Below, in pieces: positions 610-62,697 of a stretch of DNA of 64,000 nt. The notes beneath the pieces are model-generated. The model saw nothing but the letters and a program-made list of their open reading frames with translations. It had not been told where the DNA came from and searched no databases. Location: the NCBI GenBank assembly GCA_964453605.1, contig CAYVOI010000001.1, positions 166,276-230,275 of the forward strand, given 5' to 3'. Numbering within the stretch: position 1 is the stretch's first letter; every line of letters begins with the position of its first letter. The DNA is from an uncultured Gammaproteobacteria bacterium. GTDB lineage: Bacteria; Patescibacteriota; Patescibacteriia; Veblenbacterales; UBA10138. The translations under genes were made by a program, and so were the position numbers.

Positions 610-3600
610 ATGAAAATGAGAATTTTGTTGAGCATAGTCTTAGCTGGTTTGCTGTTTATAAGCTCTAGCCCAGCCTGGGCTCAGCTGGGTGGGGTAACAC
701 CACCAGTAGAACCAGCGCCAGTTTCAACTCCGGCCGAGCCAACAGTGGTAACGCCGCCAGCTGATACAGTCACCACTCCTACTGAACCAGTTACCCAAAT
801 CGTCACTCCGCCAGCCGACACCACGGCGCCGGTAATTTCTGGCGTAGCCAACCTCTCGCTCGCCGAGCACGATGCCACGATTGTGTGGACCACTGATGAG
901 TTGGCTGTTTCGACACTTGAGTATGGCACGAGCGCAAGTTACGGGCAGCAGGCCACCTTAGGCGTCAGTGCGCTGCTCGCGCACACCGCAGTTCTTACTG
1001 GTCTTAGTTCGGGCACCACCTACTACTACTGTATTCACGCCGCCGACTTAGCAGGTAACGCCGCCAACTCTTGTGGCCATACGTTCACCACTGCTGCGCA
1101 AACTGTTGTTCTCGACACCACGCCGCCCGACGTTACGCTGGTAACCGTGTCGCCGGTCACTGCCACAGGAGCAACCATTACCTTCACCACCAGTGAAGTA
1201 GGGAATGCACGAGTTGAATACGGAACAACTGCTGGCTATGGACAATCGACGCCGCTCGATACCGACCTTGCGCTCTCGCACAGCGTAACACTTAGTGGTC
1301 TCACGCCGAACACGCTGTACCATTACCGAATTATTACGAGTGATGAAATTGGGAACGAGAACATAACTCCCGACGAAACATTTACCACCACTACCCTGGG
1401 CGCACAAGCCAATGTTGGTTCTGCTGATACCACGCCCCCGGTTATTTCGGGCGTGGGTACGGTTACCCTCGGGCTCACCGACGCTACCATTGTTTGGGAA
1501 ACGAATGAGCTTTCCATTTCCACACTTGAGTACGGCACCACGCCAAACTACGGCTCGCACGCTACGCTTCCCTTAAGCGCACTGCTTGCACACAGCGCGA
1601 CCTTAACTGGCCTTGCCGCCAGCACAACGTACTACTACTGCATTCACGCCACCGATATCGCCGGAAATTCGACCACCTCGTGTCCGCACTCCTTCACTAC
1701 CCAGGCTACTAGCTCAGGGGGGTATGAAGCTATGCCGAATGTGCCCGTTACGCCACCCCTACAACCGGTCGAGCCGCCCCAACTCCCACAAACTCCTACG
1801 CCCGAGGTGCCTGGCTCTGGCGGGCAACTAGCGACTGTCACTATTACTGCGGTTGAAGCCAGTACTGTGAGTCAGACCGAGGTAACCATCACCTGGCATA
1901 CGGATGTGCCAGCCGATTCGCAAGTGTTCTATGGTGACAGTGAAAATCTAGGTAGTGCTAGTGAACTAAGCTTGACCCTTACCACCTCACACTCGGTTAC
2001 ACTTTCTGGCCTTACACCGAATACGAACTATGTGTTCCGCGTACAATCGAAACCAGTTGGGGCCCTCACTGCTACCACCCCCGGCTACTACGAGTTTACC
2101 ACCTTAAGCCACGAGGTACCGATTGTGGCGCCAGCTAACATTATAGCCGTTTCAGCTAGTGGAATTACCGCTACCAGCGCCACCATTACCTGGTTAACTG
2201 ACAAAGCTGCCACAGCGCACGTGGAGTACGGCATTTCGCCAGGCTATGGTGTTGTGTCCACGTCCAACCTAACACTCGCGACATCTCACGCCATAACTCT
2301 GACCGACCTGGAGCCCGCTACCGCCTACCATTTCCGCGTGAGATCGGTTGACGAGGCAGAGAATGAAACATTTTCGGAAGATTATACGTTTACCACTGCT
2401 GTCGCACAGTCTGGTTCCTCTGGGGGTAGCAGTGCGCTCAGCACCCCGGCCGCTATTACCGGATTAAGTGTTGGGGGATACGACAACGCCTCGGTAGAAC
2501 TTGTGTGGCACACTGAGAGCGCTAACGCCGACGTAGCCGCGCTCTACGATATTCGCTATAGTACTTCTCCCATTACTGCCGCAAGTTTCGAGAACGCTTC
2601 CCCTGCCCAAGCCACGCCAATTTACTACGGTGATGTAAGTCCACAGGGCACCACGCGCGCCTACATTGTGGCGGGGCTAGAGCCAAACACTATGTATTAT
2701 TTTGCGCTTACGTCGAAGCATGAGGCGAGCGCGTACTCCGATATATCAAACGTAGTTTCAATTACTACCAATAACACGAGCGTAGATACAGGAGCAGGAG
2801 AAGCTACGCCTGGTGTAGGGTCTAGTGCAGTGGGTGGTGGTAGCAGTGCTGGTGGTGGGGCTCTTGGTGGCTCAGTCAGTACACCGTACGGTGATGGCTC
2901 TGGCGGTACGTCCAGCGGGAGCTTTGAACCAACCATGGTAAAAGCCGAACCGGTTGACGGACAAATTGTTTTTTCCTGGCGTAACCCTGGAGAGCAGAAC
3001 TTCGTGCGTACGGTAATTGTGCGTAAAGTAGGTGGGTACCCATCATCGCCGGCCGACGGCACAACTATTTACGAAGGCCGCGGTGCCACCTACGCCGATA
3101 CCGTCCTTACGAATGGTGTAACGTACTTCTACGCGCTGTACTCCTATAACCACAGTAAAATCTACTCAAAAGGGCTATTGGTTTCCTTGGCGCCCAAGGC
3201 TGACATCAGGCAAGTACAGTTCAATGAAGGCGGAACACTGACCACCGTTGGCCCCGTATTCCATTTTGTCCGCAGCTGGAAACGGGGTGACAAGAACATC
3301 GAGATAGAACACTTGCAGGAGCTGTTGGTGGCTGATCGCGATTCATACCCCGAGCAGTACATCACCGGCTACTTCGGGGCACTCACCGAGGCAGCGCTCA
3401 GGCGTTTTCAGAAAAAGCACGGCCTCCCACAAACGGGAATTGTCGACGCCGCTACACAGAAGGAGCTGAATACTGTATCGCAGTCAGAAACCAGGTTGAA
3501 TATTCCCACCGACCTGGTGGTGTTTACTACCGATCTCAAGTTTGGGGATAGGGGCGAGGCGGTGAAAGATTTGCAACAGTACCTTATCTACGAAGGTAGT

Positions 3601-6812: not shown

Positions 6813-7051
6813 AAAGCGTTAGTAGTTAGTTGATAAACCAACAGCGCGTAGAGCGCTGTTGGGTGCTTACCAGCATCTTAAAGAGTACTAGTAAACACAG
6901 AGTACAGCATAGCTTGGGCATAATGAATTAAGTGTGAACGTTTCGCTCATTGTTTGAAACACTAGTGCAGTTATGAGCGTTATATACCTACGCGTGGACG
7001 TGGCCCCGAGGTTGCGTCCAGGTGCGTTAACTATTAACCTGCATAAGGTTT

Positions 7052-26158: not shown

Positions 26159-28177
26159 CTACCTGGTTCTCCGGGTGGCCTTTCTTTTTTTACCCGTTAG
26201 TTTGGTAACTTCTGCTAGCTGGTCCCGCAAGGTAGCCGCGCGTTCGAACTCGAGGTTCTGAGCAGCGAGCTCCATTTGGTTGGTGAGGTCCGCTGCTATG
26301 TGCTTAAGTTCTTCTGGCGGTAACTTCCCGAGTTCCAGGTGGGTAAGGTCCAACGTTTCCTCGGCACCTTTTTTACTGCCAGCGAGCCTATCGTCGGCTA
26401 TGGCGCGAACGATAGTTTGCGGTGTTATGCTGTGTTTTTGGTTGTAGGTTTGTTGCGCTTTGCGCCGGCGTTCCACCTCAGCAATGGCGCTGCGCATGGA
26501 ACCGGTGATAGTGTCGGCGTACATAATAACGTGACCCTCGGCGTGTCTAGCAGCCCGGCCCATAGTTTGAATGAGCGAGGTGTGGGAGCGTAGGAACCCT
26601 TCCTTATCGGCATCTAGAATAGCGACTAGTGATACTTCCGGCAGGTCTAACCCTTCGCGCAGCAGGTTTATGCCTACCAACACATCGTACTTGCCGAGGC
26701 GTAAGTCGCGGAGTATTTCTAAGCGTTCCATAGTGTCGACATCAGAATGTAGGTACTGCACCTTTATACCTTCGTCCTGCAGGTAGTCAGCTAGGTCCTC
26801 GGCCATGCGCTTGGTGAGCGTGGTGATGAGCACACGCTGGTGTTTCGCAATACGCGCCTTGACCTCGTCCACCAGGTTATCCACCTGGTGCTTAGTGGGT
26901 TTTATTTCCACCGTAGGGTCCAACAGCCCGGTGGGGCGAATGAGCTGTTCTACTGTGTTTTGCGAGAGCTTGCGTTCGTACTCCGCTGGGGTGGCTGAGA
27001 CGTAGATAAGCTGCTTCAGGCGCTGGTTAAACTCGTCAAAGGTCAGGGGCCGGTTGTCGAGTGCGCCAGGCACGCGGAAGCCGTAGTCTACTAGTGTTTG
27101 CTTGCGGCTGCGGTCGCCAGCGTACATGCCCCCGACTTGCGGAATGGTCATGTGCGACTCATCAATAAACACCAGCGCGTTTTTGGGGAAGTAGTCGAGC
27201 AGGGTGTAGGGTGGCTCCCCGGGCTTGCGGCCGTCGAAGTAGCGCGAGTAGTTTTCTATGCCGTTGCAGTAGCCGGTGTTTTTCAGCATTTCTAGGTCAA
27301 AGTTAGTGCGCTCTTTGAGGCGCTGCGCCTCCAAGAGCTTACCGGCTTTGGTGAATAGGGCAATTTGCTTTTCCATGTCGCGGCGAATGTCGGTAAGCGC
27401 TCCCTCAAACCGTTCGGCTGGAGCTACGTAGTGGCTGGCTGGGTACACGTCGGCCTGGGGGAGTGTGGTCACCACATCGCCCGTTAAACTGTCGCACTCC
27501 TGCAGGTTGGTTAGTTTGTCGCCGTCGTAGCTTAGGCGCAGGTACCTGTCGAGCGAGTCGGCGGGGAAAATGTCTACGGTTTCGCCGCGCACGCGGAACG
27601 TGCCGCGGTGAAAGTCCATATCATTCCGTTGGTACTGGAGCTTAGTGAGCTCTCGCAAGAGCTTTTGTCGTGGGAAGGTTAAACCGATTTTAAGAGTGAT
27701 GCGCACTTTAGCGTACTCTTCAGGGCTACCTAAGCCGTAGATGCATGAGACTGAAGCCACAATCAGGGTGTCGGGTCTCGAAAGCACACTCTGCGTGGCA
27801 GCGTGGCGGAGCCTGTCTATTTCCTCGTTCAGTTGAGTTTCTTTTTCAATGTAGGTGTCGGAGGCGGGGATGTAGGCTTCAGGCTGGTAGTAGTCGTAGT
27901 AGCTTACAAAGTAGTGCACGGCGTTTTCGGGAAAGAAACTACGAAATTCACTGGCGAGTTGGGCGGCCAGAGTTTTGTTGTGGGAGATGACGAGTGTCGG
28001 GCGTTGCACTTTGGCGACCACAGAGGCCATGGTGAACGTCTTCCCAGAGCCAGTAACGCCAACTAGGGTTTGGTGGTGCAGGTTTTTTTCTACGCCCTCA
28101 ACTAGCTTGGCAATGGCTTGAGGTTGGTCTCCCGTAGGTTTAAATGGAGCAACGAGGCGGAACTTATTTTGTGTCAT
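26159..28177 (-). CDS. uvrB: excinuclease ABC subunit B (UvrB)
   Basis: Start at internal ATG (MTQNKFRLVAPFKPTGDQPQAIAKLVEG...; E. coli UvrB begins [21 protein letters not shown]); GSGKTFT Walker A, C-terminal UVR domain ATLRDQLAEV. Confidence 0.95.
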   Translation of the reverse strand: MTQNKFRLVAPFKPTGDQPQAIAKLVEGVEKNLHHQTLVGVTGSGKTFTMASVVAKVQRPTLVISHNKTLAAQLASEFRSFFPENAVHYFVSYYDYYQPEAYIPASDTYIEKETQLNEEIDRLRHAATQSVLSRPDTLIVASVSCIYGLGSPEEYAKVRITLKIGLTFPRQKLLRELTKLQYQRNDMDFHRGTFRVRGETVDIFPADSLDRYLRLSYDGDKLTNLQECDSLTGDVVTTLPQADVYPASHYVAPAERFEGALTDIRRDMEKQIALFTKAGKLLEAQRLKERTNFDLEMLKNTGYCNGIENYSRYFDGRKPGEPPYTLLDYFPKNALVFIDESHMTIPQVGGMYAGDRSRKQTLVDYGFRVPGALDNRPLTFDEFNQRLKQLIYVSATPAEYERKLSQNTVEQLIRPTGLLDPTVEIKPTKHQVDNLVDEVKARIAKHQRVLITTLTKRMAEDLADYLQDEGIKVQYLHSDVDTMERLEILRDLRLGKYDVLVGINLLREGLDLPEVSLVAILDADKEGFLRSHTSLIQTMGRAARHAEGHVIMYADTITGSMRSAIAEVERRRKAQQTYNQKHSITPQTIVRAIADDRLAGSKKGAEETLDLTHLELGKLPPEELKHIAADLTNQMELAAQNLEFERAATLRDQLAEVTKLTGKKRKATRRTR

Positions 28178-28291
28178 AAAAGGTAGGACATGCGAGCTGA
28201 CTTGCCCCGTGGGGAACAGTCCGCCTAGTGGCGGAGAGTTCTCCTTCGGGGTCGCCCGTGGGCTTAAATGGTGCCTTGAGCTTGAACTGCA
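28163..28291 (-). other. 42-codon leader ORF upstream of uvrB whose first 14 residues (MQFKLKAPFKPTGD) mimic the UvrB N-terminus; overlaps uvrB start by 11 nt in another frame
   Basis: Manual translation of minus strand: MQFKLKAPFKPTGDPEGELSATRRTVPHGASQLACPTFYDTK*; -10 TATACT (28302..28307) lies 10 nt upstream of its ATG. Confidence 0.5.
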
Positions 28292-28301
28292 TAGGTTTAG
28301 G

Positions 28302-28307
28302 TAGTAT
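28302..28307 (-). promoter_or_regulatory. -10 box TATACT for uvrB transcript (minus strand), 10 nt before leader-ORF ATG
   Basis: minus-strand read ggtcTATACTacctaaacctATGcag. Confidence 0.45.
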
Positions 28308-28379
28308 AGACCGGTTGGCGAAGAAAAAAAATAAAGTAGCCCTCGGTCAGACTGCTTTGTCAACACGAGTTCCAAGCTC

Positions 28380-54015: not shown

Positions 54016-54495
54016 TTACTTAACTTCTTCTTCCAAAATTTGTTCCAGCTTTTTGTCGAGCTCTTCCAAGTTTACCTTGGGTTGCTCCTCGGCGGCTGGC
54101 GCAGCCGGAGCTAAGGCGGCCACCTTAGTCGCTTCCTCAGCCTTAGCGTGGAGCCGGGCGAGCTTGGCTTGTAGTGCCCGTTCGCGCTCTAGCTGCTCGG
54201 GTGACTTGACCTTCTTATCTACTATCATAGCCCTGAGTACGTCAGGCGACAGGCGGAACCAATCGTTAATCTGTTTTACCTTGTCAGTCGGCAGGTCGCA
54301 CTCCAGCACCACATAGTGGCCATGGCGTACGTGGTTTATAGGGTAGGCCAGCTTGCGTTTGCCCAACGAGTCCTCGTGGGTAATCTTGGCGCCGGCCGCG
54401 GTCAAGGTGGCGCGTACCTTGTCCTGCACTGCCCCGGGCTCATCGCCAGTTGCCTTCAGCGGGACAATGTACATGATTTCGTAGTGGTTTGTCAT
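54016..54495 (-). CDS. rpsF: 30S ribosomal protein S6 with C-terminal Ala/Glu-rich extension
   Basis: Start at internal ATG (MTNHYEIMYIVPLKATGDEPGAVQDKV...). Confidence 0.9.
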   Translation of the reverse strand: MTNHYEIMYIVPLKATGDEPGAVQDKVRATLTAAGAKITHEDSLGKRKLAYPINHVRHGHYVVLECDLPTDKVKQINDWFRLSPDVLRAMIVDKKVKSPEQLERERALQAKLARLHAKAEEATKVAALAPAAPAAEEQPKVNLEELDKKLEQILEEEVK

Positions 54496-54640
54496 AAAGG
54501 TGGTCTGACTAACAAAAAAACGCTTGAAGTTAAGAGGTTGGCCCTCACCTGTACGTCGCGCCCGTAAGGGCGGACCGGTGAGGCCCCGTGGTCCCGCAGT
54601 GCGGGATTTTACGGGGGTGGAGCGCTCAAAAAGCGCTAGC
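54496..54640 (-). promoter_or_regulatory. structured 5' leader of rpsF-ssb-rpsR operon (candidate S6:S18 autoregulatory leader)
   Basis: ~145 nt with nested hairpins (GCGCTttttgaGCGC, CCCGCActgCGGG, long-range CCTCACC...GGTGAGG) between promoter and rpsF ATG. Confidence 0.45.
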
Positions 54641-56034: not shown

Positions 56035-56403
56035 CTACCATCTTCTTTCGATATAGACCGAGCCGCTGCGCCTGTGCGTGTTCACCTCAATATAGGCTTT
56101 GAGCTGCAGCTCAGGCATTCTCTCAGGAGATACTGTGGCCTCGATCTCGAAGTTGTCCTTGTTGATTTTTGAGCTGTGTATATCTTTAAGTATCACCACC
56201 CGACCCTTGCCGAGACCCATTTGTTGGTGACGGATGGCCTCTTCACCAGTGACGTATTGGGGCTCTATGGTAAACCACACCCGTTCTTGGATCAGTATTT
56301 GGGGGTACCCAGAGGCGATGAGAAGTTCCATTTTTGATGGGCCACTAATTGTCCAAAAACAGAAATGGGTCTTCAGCAGTTCCTCGTGCTTCGTAGTTGC
56401 CAT
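56035..56403 (-). CDS. hypothetical protein (122 aa)
   Basis: Start at ATG 56403 with SD AGAGGGG 8 nt upstream; dedicated terminator; no recognised domain. Confidence 0.45.
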   Translation of the reverse strand: MATTKHEELLKTHFCFWTISGPSKMELLIASGYPQILIQERVWFTIEPQYVTGEEAIRHQQMGLGKGRVVILKDIHSSKINKDNFEIEATVSPERMPELQLKAYIEVNTHRRSGSVYIERRW

Positions 56404-56621
56404 GACGACAACCCCTCTCTTTGGTTTACAGCGCTTTGGGGGCGCTTTCCCCGTTATCCGCCCGGGGCGGACCACCTAACCATAACGGCTAGGAATTCAT
56501 TAACCAATGTTTTTGGTTAACACTTATTTGTATACCAAATCGCTAATGCTGTCAAGCCCTAAACACTAAACCTAAAGTGGCAGCTATCGTTAGGTAGTGT
56601 TGCTTGTTGTTTTTATAGACT

Positions 56622-59670: not shown

Positions 59671-61503
59671 TTAGCTTCTAGCCAGTGCAGCTTGGCGTTT
59701 GGCTTCGTTTTCGTCCAGTATCAGTTTACGAATGCGAACATTTTTGGGTGTAACTTCAACCAGCTCGTCAGCTCCAATGTATTCTAGAGAGTCTTCCAGG
59801 TCCATGGTGTGGGGGGTGTTGAAGTGTTCGGCGGAACCATCACCCTTGGAGCGCATGTTAGAAAGCTGCTTGGCCTTACACACGTTCACGCGAATGTCCC
59901 CTGGGCGCGAGTTCTGCCCGACCACTTGGCCCTTGTACACCTCTACCCCTGACCCAATGAACATAACGCCGCGGTCTTGCACGTTGAGAAGGCCATAGAG
60001 GTTGCTGGTGCCGCTTTCGTGCGCCACCAAGCTGCCCTGTTCGCGTTCGTGCCAGCCCCCGGGATCGGCTTGGTACTCAAAGAACATGGTGTTCATAATC
60101 CCCAAGCCGCGGGTGTCGGTGAGGAACTCAGTACGGTAGCCAAACAAACCCTTGGTCGGCACCGCAAACTCGAGGAACGTAATGCCGTTCTCCACCCGCA
60201 TTTCTTTAAGTTCGCCGCGCCGAGCGCCCAGTTTTTGTATGACTACACCAGCGTGTGCCTCGGGCACTTCAATAAATACCAGTTCATACGGTGTCAGGGT
60301 AGCACCGCCTGCTTGTTTATTGATTACCTGGGGCTGGGCGACCTGGAACTCATACCCCTCACGCCGCAAACGCTCAATCAAAATAGCCAAGTGCAGCTCA
60401 CCCCGGCCTGACACCACCCATCCGCCAGGCGGCGGTCCACTAGCGTCGTCTTCTACCCGAAGGGCCATGTCAGTTTCGAGCTCTTTGTAGAGCCGGTCCC
60501 TGACCTGCCGCGAGGTTACAAACGTGCCCTCGCGTCCGGCGAACGGGGAGTTGTTAACACTGAATGTCATTTTTACCGTGGGCTCCTCAATCTTCAACAA
60601 GGGGAGTGCTACCGGGTTCACGGGGTCAGCTACGGTTTCACCAATCGTGACGTCGGAAATTCCAGCCAGCGCCACAATGTCCCCAACGCTGGCGGAGGTT
60701 ACCTCCACCCGCCCCAAACCCTCAAACGTCATCAGAGAAACTAGGCGACACTTTTCGCTCTGGCCTTGGCGGTTGATGTGTGCCACCTCTTGCCCAGCCT
60801 TAACTGTGCCGTTCATGACCTTGCCAGTGGCGATGCGGCCCTTGAACGTGTCACCGCTGATGGTAGTAACCAAAATTTGTAAAGGCTTGTCAACCTCGCC
60901 CTTGGGCGCTGGCACGTACTTGAGGATAGCCTCAAAAATGGGGTTGATGTCCGTCATCTTGTTTAAGTCCGGCTCAAAGCCAGCTTTGCCGTCGCGGGCT
61001 GAGGCGTACACAATGGGGAAGTCGGCGGCTTCGTCGCTCGCCCCCAGTTCCACAAACAGGTCAAACGTTAGTCCGTGTACGTGGTCTATGCGGGCGTCTG
61101 GTTTATCTATTTTGTTTATGACCACAATAACCTTAAGCCCCATCTTAAGTGCCTGCTTTAGCACGAACCTGGTTTGGGGCATGGGGCCTTCCTTAGCATC
61201 CACCAGCAGCAGACAGCCGTCGGCCATGGTGAGTACGCGCTCTACCTCGCCGCCAAAGTCGGCGTGGCCGGGGGTGTCGATGATATTGATCTTGGTCCCT
61301 TGCCAGTTTATGGAAGCGTTCTTAGAGAAAATGGTGATACCGCGCTCACGCTCCAGCTCATTTGAATCCATGATCAATTCCTTGCTCTCCATTTCCTTAC
61401 CGAGCTTGGTTTTAGATTGGCGCAGCAAAGCATCGACCAGGGTAGTTTTACCATGATCGACGTGTGCAATGATAGCTACGTTACGAATGGAATTAGAGGT
61501 CAT
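59671..61503 (-). CDS. typA: translational GTPase TypA/BipA
   Basis: Start at ATG 61503 (MTSNSIRNVAIIAHVDHGKTTLVDALL...); EF-G-like domain series. Confidence 0.93.
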   Translation of the reverse strand: MTSNSIRNVAIIAHVDHGKTTLVDALLRQSKTKLGKEMESKELIMDSNELERERGITIFSKNASINWQGTKINIIDTPGHADFGGEVERVLTMADGCLLLVDAKEGPMPQTRFVLKQALKMGLKVIVVINKIDKPDARIDHVHGLTFDLFVELGASDEAADFPIVYASARDGKAGFEPDLNKMTDINPIFEAILKYVPAPKGEVDKPLQILVTTISGDTFKGRIATGKVMNGTVKAGQEVAHINRQGQSEKCRLVSLMTFEGLGRVEVTSASVGDIVALAGISDVTIGETVADPVNPVALPLLKIEEPTVKMTFSVNNSPFAGREGTFVTSRQVRDRLYKELETDMALRVEDDASGPPPGGWVVSGRGELHLAILIERLRREGYEFQVAQPQVINKQAGGATLTPYELVFIEVPEAHAGVVIQKLGARRGELKEMRVENGITFLEFAVPTKGLFGYRTEFLTDTRGLGIMNTMFFEYQADPGGWHEREQGSLVAHESGTSNLYGLLNVQDRGVMFIGSGVEVYKGQVVGQNSRPGDIRVNVCKAKQLSNMRSKGDGSAEHFNTPHTMDLEDSLEYIGADELVEVTPKNVRIRKLILDENEAKRQAALARS

Positions 61504-61598
61504 ACTTGTTTTGCCGTGGCCTGCCCCGTAGTTCCGCCCCAAGCGGATACTGTGGGGTCGACGTGGGCGATGATAGCAACATTACGGATGTTCTGCAT
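61500..61598 (-). other. 32-codon leader ORF upstream of typA: MQNIRNVAIIAHVD + tail; residues 4-14 mimic TypA residues 6-16 with only synonymous differences; stop overlaps typA ATG (ATGA)
   Basis: Manual translation of minus strand: MQNIRNVAIIAHVDPTVSAWGGTTGQATAKQV*; a (D/G)HGKT-coding remnant follows in the typA frame after a 35-nt non-homologous segment. Confidence 0.5.
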
Positions 61599-61654
61599 GG
61601 TTGGAATAAAAATAGCTCGAGGAGCAAGTCGCTTACCTCAAGCAACCTTAGGCC

Positions 61655-61683
61655 ATGATAGGTGGAATTGCGCGCGCTGTCAA
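61655..61683 (-). promoter_or_regulatory. sigma70-like promoter TTGACA-17-TATCAT for typA (minus strand)
   Basis: minus read ggTTGACAgcgcgcgcaattccaccTATCATggc. Confidence 0.6.
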
Positions 61684-61712
61684 CCCTGGTTTGGGTAGCG
61701 TTAACTAGATAT

Positions 61713-61755
61713 AATTAAAAAAGAGCCTCCAGCAAAAAAATTTTGCTGAAGGCTC
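61713..61755 (-). terminator. rho-independent terminator downstream of minus-strand gene 61831..62697
   Basis: GAGCCTTCAGCAAAA-aattt-TTTGCTGGAGGCTC then TTTTTTAATT on minus strand. Confidence 0.7.
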
Positions 61756-61830
61756 AAGAGTATCCGCCTTCATCCCACTTAGCGGGACTACGGCGGACAG
61801 GCAAGAGGAACGAGTCCTCCCCGCGCTCCT

Positions 61831-62697
61831 CTACGCGGGGCGAGCAAGGTTCGAGATTGGTTTTGGATACTTCCGGGAGGCACCAGCGCCAAGGTGGCAG
61901 CCACGGACGTTATCCATGGAGTAGCTCATGCTGAACCCATCAGAACCGAGGTAGCCACCTTCGAAGCGGAAAACGTCCGAAGAAAGGTCCTTACACCGAG
62001 CATACCGATTGGGGTTGGCTCGTACTCCTGTTTTCTTGAAGTAGTGGAACGACTTCACGGTTTCCTCGATGGCGAGTGGAAGCTCGTAGTCAGCGCCCAC
62101 CATGACTTGCTGCTCCGGGGTGGTCTTGTTTTCTGACTTCGGCACAATCTCAATGTGCGTCAGGTACCACCGCAGCTCCATCGTTACCGTGGCAAGGTTC
62201 TGGTCACTGTACCCGGCGTTGTCGTAGGTGTAGAATTTGGGCTGTCCTGTGGATGGGTAGAACTCCCTGAACTTCACGATGGAGAGCTTCTCGCCCTTGA
62301 TTTCCTCAAGCCCGACGTGGGCAAAGTGGCAATCGCGCACGGTTTTGCCACACAGCGGGCAGGTGGACAGCAGCACCTCCTCGTTCCAGGGGAATAGCGC
62401 CAGCTCCTTGAGCTGCTTCTTGGTGTAGATGCCACCGTAGGTGGCAACCCAGTCTTCGGGGCCCCAGTAGTTTTTGCCCATGATGGCACGGGCAATACGC
62501 TGGTCGAGCGAGGGTTCGATGCCCCGACGGAGCATGAAGTTGGCGACCTTTTTGTTGAACGGGTCATTCTCATCATCAAGCTGAGTGATGATAGCAGCAC
62601 CTTGGCTACCGAGGTTATTGAACAGCTTGCTCAGGGCAGTGTTATGCTTTCCCACGGGAACTGTCCAAACAGTTCCTTCTTTTGGTGAGTTTGGCAT
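61831..62697 (-). CDS. hypothetical protein (288 aa) with CxxC...CxxxH putative metal site
   Basis: SD AAAGGAG 7 nt upstream; CPLCGKTVRDCHFAH motif; no family recognised. Confidence 0.55.
   Translation of the reverse strand: MPNSPKEGTVWTVPVGKHNTALSKLFNNLGSQGAAIITQLDDENDPFNKKVANFMLRRGIEPSLDQRIARAIMGKNYWGPEDWVATYGGIYTKKQLKELALFPWNEEVLLSTCPLCGKTVRDCHFAHVGLEEIKGEKLSIVKFREFYPSTGQPKFYTYDNAGYSDQNLATVTMELRWYLTHIEIVPKSENKTTPEQQVMVGADYELPLAIEETVKSFHYFKKTGVRANPNRYARCKDLSSDVFRFEGGYLGSDGFSMSYSMDNVRGCHLGAGASRKYPKPISNLARPA

Follow-up and report, generated by a model that had tools for sequence, protein, structure and literature searches.

We analyzed a window of 64,000 nucleotides (nt) from a Patescibacteria genome (assembly GCA_964453605.1, contig CAYVOI010000001.1, positions 166,276 to 230,275), in which typA is directly preceded by a second copy of its own 5' end, interrupted by a short palindromic insert, here called element E. 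On comparison with related genomes, this upstream copy, hereafter the relic, is the ancestral typA start and not an evolved mimic of it. We consider it probable that this start was stranded by a gene-preserving insertion cassette of about 101 nt, and that it now acts as a coupled upstream open reading frame (uORF) of the gene it formerly began. The cassette would be one of a class of miniature, enzyme-less and gene-preserving inserts that Patescibacteria carry in the 5' coding region of conserved genes. Membership in this class was demonstrated for uvrB, of which the window holds a sister instance, and would extend to typA by analogy.

The duplicated start of typA

The features of both loci are collected in Table 1. 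The window TypA was 100% identical to database protein P0001, of 610 amino acids. Behind the junction triplet AGT, the working gene reads ATG ACC TCT AAT TCC and then ATT CGT AAC ... GTC GAT CAT GGT AAA ACT, and this beginning repeats the relic: positions 61558-61590 and 61457-61489 form a direct repeat of 33 nt with 85% identity and a spacing of 101. The limits given for the typA cassette were set by analogy with the uvrB cassette of loci L089 and L092 described below, and its length is the repeat spacing. When relic and working copy were compared codon by codon, the stretch coding for IRNVAIIAHVD contained six differences, all synonymous, in agreement with the first-pass annotation of this DNA. 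The 45 nt coding for IRNVAIIAHVDHGKT, which include HGKT, contained nine, again all synonymous; among random single-base changes in the repeated stretch, 24-29% would be synonymous. That annotation was also right in stating that the duplication covers about 50 nt of the typA 5' end, that a frame-breaking insertion splits the upstream copy, and that the uORF stop TGA overlaps the typA ATG as ATGA. It had described the insertion as a 35-nt unrelated segment followed by a GHGKT remnant. The HGKT remnant is indeed in the typA frame, but the insert measures 38 nt (the 35 nt plus the 'G' codon are the same stretch) and is a member of the E family, not random filler.

No Shine-Dalgarno-like sequence was found in the 14 nt before the new typA ATG (ACGGCAAAACAAGT). 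The promoter-like site ahead of the relic gave 11 of 12 consensus matches, with 0.3 expected in shuffled sequences. The duplication exceeds what coincidence would produce: three scans of the window, by DNA repeats, peptide identity and BLOSUM scoring, detected N-terminal coding duplications at typA and uvrB only. Rfam returned three tRNAs only in the window, with zero matches in 61400-61850 at expectation values up to 10.

Table 1. Positions of the typA and uvrB start-region features
Feature	Position	Strand	Description
Functional typA	59671..61503	minus	610 amino acids, starts MTSNSIRNVAIIAHVDHGKTT; ATG 61503-61501
Promoter-like site, native typA	61655..61683	minus	TTGACA (61683-61678), 17-nt spacer, TATCAT (61660-61655)
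Native leader	61605..61643	minus	predicted fold: hairpin GCTTGAGG...CCTCGAGC, then U-rich tract TATTTTTATT, abutting the old ATG
Relic part a	61557..61598	minus	ancestral typA ATG and codons 2-14, MQNIRNVAIIAHVD, ending GTC GAC
Element E at typA	61519..61556	minus	38-nt palindromic insert CCCACAGTATCCGCTTGGGGCGGAACTACGGGGCAGGC, between old codons 14 (GAC) and 15 (CAC)
Relic part b	61507..61518	minus	CAC GGC AAA ACA (HGKT), old G1/P-loop codons 15-18
Junction	61500..61506	minus	AGT, new typA ATG (61503-61501), overlapping uORF stop TGA (61502-61500)
Relic uORF, whole	61500..61598	minus	32 codons, MQNIRNVAIIAHVDPTVSAWGGTTGQATAKQV; ATG at 61598
Putative inserted cassette	61456..61556	minus	101 nt: E, relic part b, junction, new ATG, replacement codons 1-16 ending GTC GAT
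Terminator of the gene preceding typA	61723-61755		15-bp stem, T-runs on both strands
uvrB sister instance	28164..28292	minus	relic MQFKLKAPFKPTGD (28292-28251) ending GGC GAC
Element E at uvrB	28250-28200	minus	51-nt palindrome CCCGAAGG...CACGGGGCAAGT
New uvrB start	28177-28175	minus	ATG after spacer; relic uORF stop TAA 28166-28164
Second kind of typA start-replacement cassette	L055 1656-1770; L080 ~2359-2500		strong AGGAGG

The origin of the upstream copy was indicated by a single relative. Among 5.8 billion proteins, the sole close relative of the window TypA was P0002, of 604 amino acids and 91% identical, and its N-terminus MQNIRNVAIIAHVDHGKTT equals the relic peptide MQNIRNVAIIAHVD plus the HGKT remnant exactly. 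In its locus, L081, typA has a single copy of the start (ATG CAA AAC ATT CGT), with TTGACA-17-TACTAT about 55 nt ahead of the ATG and a leader of hairpin and U-tract as in the window. This locus lacks E and contains the uninterrupted site GTCGAC^CACGGCAAAAC, to which the window remnant is identical at 11 of 11 positions. Because peptide, promoter and leader all match this single-copy gene, the upstream copy is best read as the ancestral typA start, and the name of N-terminal-mimic uORF used in the first-pass annotation is not appropriate. Relic and working copy each differ from L081 at 7 of 45 positions, all of them synonymous. Synonymous-only differences would be expected of a recently displaced start beside a diverged replacement, not of a long-idle spare copy. 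The arrangement of the window was found in none of 80 species-representative Patescibacteria typA loci, and a more sensitive scan of these loci detected a second copy in two only (L055 and L080), with a different insert; thus the uORF is not conserved in close relatives of this typA, being absent from L081 and from 78 of the 80 other loci. No in-frame duplicated N-termini were found among over-long database proteins.

A GC hairpin with a U-tract lies directly upstream of the typA ATG in L081 (440-488), L066, L047, L041 and the window (61605-61643), for example CCCCC..GGGGGATTTTTTAATTTT ATG, and these typA starts have no Shine-Dalgarno sequence. Such a structure resembles a terminator placed against the start codon, and it may contribute to the initiation signal.

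Recurrence at uvrB and the element E family

The proposal of the first-pass annotation that typA and uvrB display the same phenomenon was borne out, since the window uvrB also has a relic, E after codon 14 (GAC), a spacer and a new start. By repeat spacing, its insert is 124 nt, and the empty site GGCGAC^CAA is present in L082 (89% UvrB identity). E follows uvrB codon 14 GAC in the window and in seven other loci, representing six distinct sequences (L083, L085, L086/L087, L089, L090 and L092). The inserts of these relatives begin with CCCG directly after the GAC and end with ..ACGGGGCRAG. In L088, the 3' part of E and the spacer are kept and the relic is deleted; with this exception, every uvrB examined that encodes a long N-terminus (MxxxxF...) has the insert and an upstream relic of the short type. 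Long-type and short-type N-termini are interleaved in the UvrB tree, which is consistent with gain on several occasions or with gain and loss. L083 (3238-3437) contains two layers, a decayed short-type relic (MFKLELTSKPAYT*) and then a long-type relic (MSQNKFRLVAPFKPTGD), followed by the working uvrB start; the long-type relic carries a 78-nt E with a nested palindrome, and the locus shows two successive cassette rounds. E was found in every relic examined save the decayed one of L083 (relic 1). Concerted evolution between relic and new copy was not supported, the within-genome identity being 0.72 versus 0.69 between genomes (p = 0.16).

At native uvrB starts, the ATG is preceded at only 6-14 nt by a -10-like box, TATACT or TAAAAT (window 28293-28315, L082, L086, L089 and L090), and the spacers before new uvrB starts often carry TATAAA at a similar distance. 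These boxes suggest short-leader or leaderless transcripts, and possibly a second promoter inside the cassette.

Evidence of movement came from the comparison of L089 and L092. The L089 protein, P0127, has a body 91% identical to that of P0128, whose short N-terminus MNFKLKSPFKPTGD is exactly the relic peptide of L089. Its working N-terminus, MSKAS-FILKSSFKPTGD, has instead the 12-residue core of P0153, the protein of L092, whose body is only 70% identical. When the two loci were compared, 96 of 100 nt were identical in E plus spacer (the nested 20-nt hairpin of L089 being set aside) and nucleotide identity was 89% in new codons 1-22, falling to 70% in the gene bodies (71% for amino acids) and 52% in the leaders upstream of the relics. 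The differences within E are confined to the inner stem and the loop region. The relics are host-specific, MNFKLKSPF in L089 and MKFILKSPF in L092, and each matches the native N-terminus of its own clade; the cassette is flanked on each side by about 15 nt that both loci have in common, resembling a co-conversion tract. Since E and spacer are near-identical between genes of 70% identity and the relics are host-specific, the uvrB cassette has moved horizontally as a unit.

The L089 cassette contains an extra 20-nt hairpin (CCTGCCTACCGGCAGGCAGG, 1159-1178) nested just after E and absent from the L092 cassette. Despite the frame change that it causes, the relic ORF still ends beside the new ATG, owing to the stops that the spacer GCTATAAAAAACTTATGA has in two frames.

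E is a real structured element family with a covarying inner stem. In the alignment of seven inserts, the ends GACCCC...ACGGGGC are invariant and the outer helix CCCC(G)/(C)GGGG does not vary, and all five inner-helix pairs are changed on both sides. In this alignment, 92% of the cells are paired versus 75% in shuffles, none of 500 reaching the observed value, and 32-53% in slid controls. The typA copy closely resembles the uvrB inserts of L085 and L090, CCCACAGTA-TCCGC-loop-GCGGA-ACTACGGGGCAGGC versus CCCGAAGTA-TGCCG-loop-CGGCA-ACTACGGGGCGAGC. Covariance model R1 scored 49.6 bits for the typA copy and 50 bits for the window uvrB copy, both of which belong to its training set, and it recovered the untrained copies of L083 and L092 with expectation values of 5e-5 and 5e-13, respectively. 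When R1 was run over the whole window with filters off, strong matches were limited to the two copies of the training set, which lie within the relics of typA and uvrB. GAC directly precedes E in the aligned inserts and there is no flanking target-site duplication; moreover, the ends of E are asymmetric, and a CTAC/GTAG-like tetranucleotide adjoins the stem in several copies. An intergenic copy is present in L009. No family in Rfam corresponds to E.

Some further hairpins were noted. The leader of rpsF, a gene upstream of ssb with its ATG at 54495, contains an E-like one, CCCCGTAAAATCCCGCACTGCGGGACCACGGGGC (54583-54616, minus strand), which R1 matched only weakly (17.5 bits, expectation value 0.003) and which has no adjoining gene-start duplication. 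A uORF encoding MVRWSAPGG* (56400-56480, minus strand) contains the hairpin TCCGCCCCGGGCGGA and then a second GC hairpin, in the leader of an ORF of 122 amino acids starting at 56403. The hairpins at 61763-61797 and 56457-56471 were considered as E members, and this claim was dropped because their likeness was not above that of shuffles. The former, which is strong (-25.6 kcal/mol, z = -4.6) and partly resembles the typA insert (GCGGGACTACGG), stands after an ORF of 288 amino acids and ahead of the terminator at 61723-61755. The idea of E as an abundant repeat of the window was likewise rejected, as short-pattern matches and local alignments did not exceed shuffled queries. The 288-residue ORF (61831-62697, minus strand) has a Cys-rich CPLCGKTVRDCHFAH stretch, no Pfam match, and a position between the typA promoter and an ABC-transporter gene. 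In L081 typA comes directly after the ABC-transporter gene, so that this ORF is an insertion adjoining the cassette.

In L091, a viral contig (IMGVR_UViG_3300028388_004259), the outer module CCCGAAGTA ... ACTACGGGGC surrounds an AT-rich perfect palindrome at 6995-7043, flanked by portal-like and terminase-like genes. At expectation values up to 0.01 it received no R1 score; the match may be due to chance or may represent a true phage-borne E. It was the one exact outer-module match of the viral scans; a looser pattern gave at least 120, mostly chance matches and with weak R1 scores only. The viral scans gave no evidence that phages commonly carry E.

The two other typA loci with a second copy, L055 and L080, contain a different kind of start-replacement cassette. 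After the native leader and a relic (MNIRNVAII or MKKLRNIAII), an unrelated 57-nt or 83-nt insert is followed by ATTATTGCCAC with a common 1-nt deletion, AGGAGRAATTAAATA, and the new ATG with a complete N-terminus; the L055 insert is flanked by ATTAT. Between both loci, whose TypA proteins are ~70% identical, identity is ~90% over a stretch of about 85 nt that extends from spacer into new coding sequence. Their nearest relatives, L066 for L055 (97% amino-acid identity) and L071 and L074 for L080, lack the cassette, and the L055 leader and first 20 coding bases are identical to the native start of L066. From this anatomy, a general cassette design recurs with a different insert. An argument that the new copy of L055 had been 'recoded' was withdrawn, as its 9 of 45 differences from L066 are within the gene-wide range. 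A metagenome scan for the spacer pattern of L055 and L080 gave one chance match, which was not typA.

Translation, origin and rival explanations

The arrangement that we propose for typA can be described as follows. The stranded original 5' end would keep its promoter, U-rich leader, start codon and first 18 codons. The insert of about 101 nt would have entered after codon 14 (GAC|CAC), within the DNA of the G1/P-loop, and would comprise E, 12 nt of old typA (HGKT), a 3-nt junction with the new ATG, and a second, synonymously different N-terminal copy joined in frame to the rest of typA. In general terms, E, a spacer and replacement start and N-terminal codons would restore the gene, and the start of the host would be left as a coupled uORF. 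The relic uORF has a plausible initiation region of its own, formed by the ancestral typA ATG, leader and promoter, as in L081. The native promoter and initiation region may thus still load ribosomes on the old ATG; these would translate the 32-codon relic through E, terminate at the TGA that, as read from the sequence, overlaps the new ATG, and presumably reinitiate there to give a normal full-length TypA.

All 11 relic ORFs remain open through the insert and have their stop from -10 to +11 nt of the next ATG, with an ATGA overlap in 3 of the 11. The null probability of the stop position is 0.03-0.2 per case, with a product of ~7e-12 over cases that are not fully independent. Moreover, no Shine-Dalgarno-like sequence precedes the new ATG in the GC-rich cases, including the window typA. 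Because all 11 relic ORFs stop near the next ATG, the geometry argues for termination-reinitiation coupling between the relic ORF and the new start.

Several observations weigh against the proposed cassette. Coupling is suggested by geometry only. The new ATG of L055 and of L080 has a strong Shine-Dalgarno sequence of its own, and L088 has lost its relic; the relic is therefore not always needed. Only a single typA locus with E is known, so mobility of the typA cassette is proposed by analogy, and the cassette could have been imported or could have arisen in place. The HGKT remnant after E puts E inside old typA sequence, and a cassette of only E plus a new start does not by itself explain this remnant. 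A sliding-identity comparison of the window typA with L081 displayed no mosaic breakpoint, at a poor resolution given 80% identity, and the corresponding comparisons of uvrB with L082 and L083 (~78-80% identity) gave no clear breakpoint signal. E is rare in the window, unlike an abundant REP (repetitive extragenic palindromic) or MITE (miniature inverted-repeat transposable element) repeat, and local alignments of the typA and uvrB inserts with the rest of the window were not above shuffled queries. Finally, no transposase, nuclease or recombinase was linked to E in the 64 kb of genome covered, in which no HUH/Y1 candidate was examined.

Some of these points would be expected from a local tandem duplication of the typA start (a few leader bases and about 18 codons), with E arriving later in the spare upstream copy, subsequent divergence of the copies and no mobility. 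In this case HGKT would follow E in a continuous old typA sequence, the hit would be tolerated only in the spare upstream copy, and neither a second typA locus with this E cassette nor a breakpoint relative to L081 would be needed; moreover, the uvrB spacers before the new ATG resemble the native -10 box and start (GCTATAAA..ATG versus TATACT..ATG). Such a duplication is nevertheless unlikely in our estimation. A spare copy should gather nonsynonymous changes, and none of the nine is of this kind (P ~1e-3 to 2e-2, assuming that the relic took 3-5 of them); the divergence from L081 is no greater for the relic than for the working copy (7 versus 7); the sequence before the new ATG is unlike the native typA leader; and the equivalent uvrB structure has been shown to pass between hosts as a unit. 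A local duplication also leaves unexplained the presence of E in every relic but the decayed relic 1 of L083. If the upstream peptide were instead a functional leader peptide, selected to resemble the TypA N-terminus and regulating typA, the synonymous-only differences, the universal stop-start geometry and the uvrB relic-relic identity between genomes (0.71 versus 0.66 for working copies) would be accounted for. We find this quite improbable, as the peptide is missing from the closest relative, L081, and from 78 of the 80 other typA loci, the relics match the native N-terminus of each host, as recently displaced starts would, and they decay or vanish while the gene stays (relic 1 of L083; L088). 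In addition, the relic sequence after E is not conserved, and we know of no mechanism by which such a leader peptide would act.

The two Asp codons raise the question of recoding, in which a ribosome would hop from the Asp before E to the Asp ending the second copy, or the intervening RNA or DNA would be removed, to give MQNIRNVAIIAHVD-HGKTT... Asp is encoded at both take-off and landing (GAC to GAT in typA; GAC to GAC in the window uvrB, L083 and L086), the hairpin starts directly behind the take-off site, and the relic encodes an intact peptide. In every case, however, a complete N-terminus with an ATG of its own is present in the second copy, so that neither bypass nor splicing is needed. 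The new ATG is preceded by a strong Shine-Dalgarno sequence in L055 and L080, L088 keeps the gene without the relic, no stop follows the take-off codon (the next codon is CCC), the gaps from relic ATG to new ATG are 95-153 nt, compared with ~50 nt in T4 gene 60, and no Rfam intron or ribozyme matched. Collectively, this leaves recoding with a very slight chance of being correct. Misassembly is slighter still: two strain variants of the typA 5' end would have been joined in tandem, and the two copies do differ like alleles of related strains. The ordered architecture was found in ten further loci (nine distinct sequences) of NCBI, JGI, ENA and Logan assemblies; neither E nor the junction is allelic sequence; and the window's contig is reported as 876 kb. 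Misassembly is excluded in practice because the architecture recurs in independent assemblies.

As for the route by which the proposed gene-preserving cassette arose and inserted, the candidates are break repair that copies from a cassette-bearing allele, hairpin-directed single-strand transposition, and recombination after DNA uptake. The HGKT remnant and the -10-box-like uvrB spacers suggest that the first cassette derived from a local duplication of a start region with E in the upstream copy. E itself, the insertion at GAC^ without target duplication, the asymmetric ends and the CTAC motif recall hairpin-directed single-strand transposition of the REP or IS200/IS605 type, and the identical flanks of L089 and L092 together with the conserved-motif targets recall homing by break repair. 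A broader proposal, to which we give somewhat less than even chances, is that the E-cassettes of Patescibacteria form a class of 'self-rescuing' miniature mobile elements not described before. The E hairpin, together with a conserved ...GAC^ site among the initial codons of housekeeping genes, would be recognised by an enzyme acting in trans, and the start and the displaced N-terminal codons would be carried or regenerated by the element. Under this proposal, conserved genes would be colonised without gene death and the coupled uORF would be a new handle on translation.

If the cassette reading is true, tiny enzyme-less selfish DNA can persist in the most conserved housekeeping coding DNA of reduced genomes. 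It would explain the 'duplicate N-terminus' uORFs and the patchy +3-residue UvrB N-termini of Patescibacteria, and would warn annotators of false N-terminal extensions and wrong start calls. It would also be direct evidence of the exchange of segments of ~100 nt between distantly related uncultivated bacteria, and would provide natural test cases for termination-reinitiation where translation signals are poorly known. An enzyme that recognises E would be a candidate DNA tool with specificity for both sequence and structure.

Relation to known systems

We found no description of this architecture in the searchable literature on palindromic, REP or MITE elements and coding insertions of Patescibacteria. 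Like the palindromes of REP elements and their REP-associated tyrosine transposases (RAYTs), of IS200/IS605, or MITEs, E is small and has a conserved stem, a variable interior and compensatory changes. Like those of REP and IS200/IS605, it lies directly 3' of a short fixed ...GAC^, without target-site duplication and with a CTAC/GTAG-like tetranucleotide. Unlike REP elements, E is not abundant or dispersed, its strong matches in the 64 kb both being inside relics; it travels with gene-specific coding arms, and no RAYT or TnpA partner was identified in the 64 kb covered, where no candidate was examined. Membership of E in this type is unproven. Rickettsia palindromic elements (RPEs) are selfish palindromes found without lethality in ORFs of unrelated housekeeping genes, where they are inserted in frame and become part of the protein (PMC10969869). 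Unlike RPEs, E is excluded from the protein, and the duplicated start and N-terminus keep the function.

As with homing introns, inteins and endonuclease genes, the targets are the DNA of the most conserved motifs, i.e., the typA P-loop and an N-terminal motif of uvrB; L089 and L092 have identical flanks of ~15 nt, and the target is mutated in some of the working copies (GGAGAC, GTCGAT). In contrast to homing elements, the insert holds no endonuclease ORF and no splicing element (Rfam negative), and the gene is kept by duplication. As in termination-reinitiation at ATGA overlaps, the relic stop lies on or next to the downstream start in all 11 cases, but the upstream ORF is, unlike in usual coupled uORFs, a fossil of the start of the same gene and not a separate gene or a dedicated leader peptide. 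With the bypass of T4 gene 60, the typA and uvrB structures share matching codons, here both Asp; they differ from it in having a complete N-terminus, led by an ATG, inside the gap and in lacking a stop behind the take-off codon.

Some integrative elements also insert in the coding region of a housekeeping gene, bring a mostly synonymous replacement end and leave the native fragment as a remnant. Thus, e14 and phage 21 integrate in icd, and SXT/R391 elements in the 5' end of prfC. Both prfC and typA encode translational GTPases, and both are hit close to the 5' end. These elements are kilobase-sized and have their own integrase and defined att cores. Like them, the uvrB cassette of L089 and L092 supplies the displaced part of the gene and leaves the native part as a remnant, and the typA anatomy is alike. 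Unlike them, no site-specific recombinase is present, as the insert (101 nt at typA, 124 nt at uvrB) has no coding capacity beyond the gene's own codons; the cassette measures ~100-125 nt and contains a palindrome, and the displaced start lies directly upstream, where it is apparently reused as a coupled uORF. Closest in function are the integrative elements that bring a substitute gene end, and the cassette resembles a miniaturised, integrase-less version of them.

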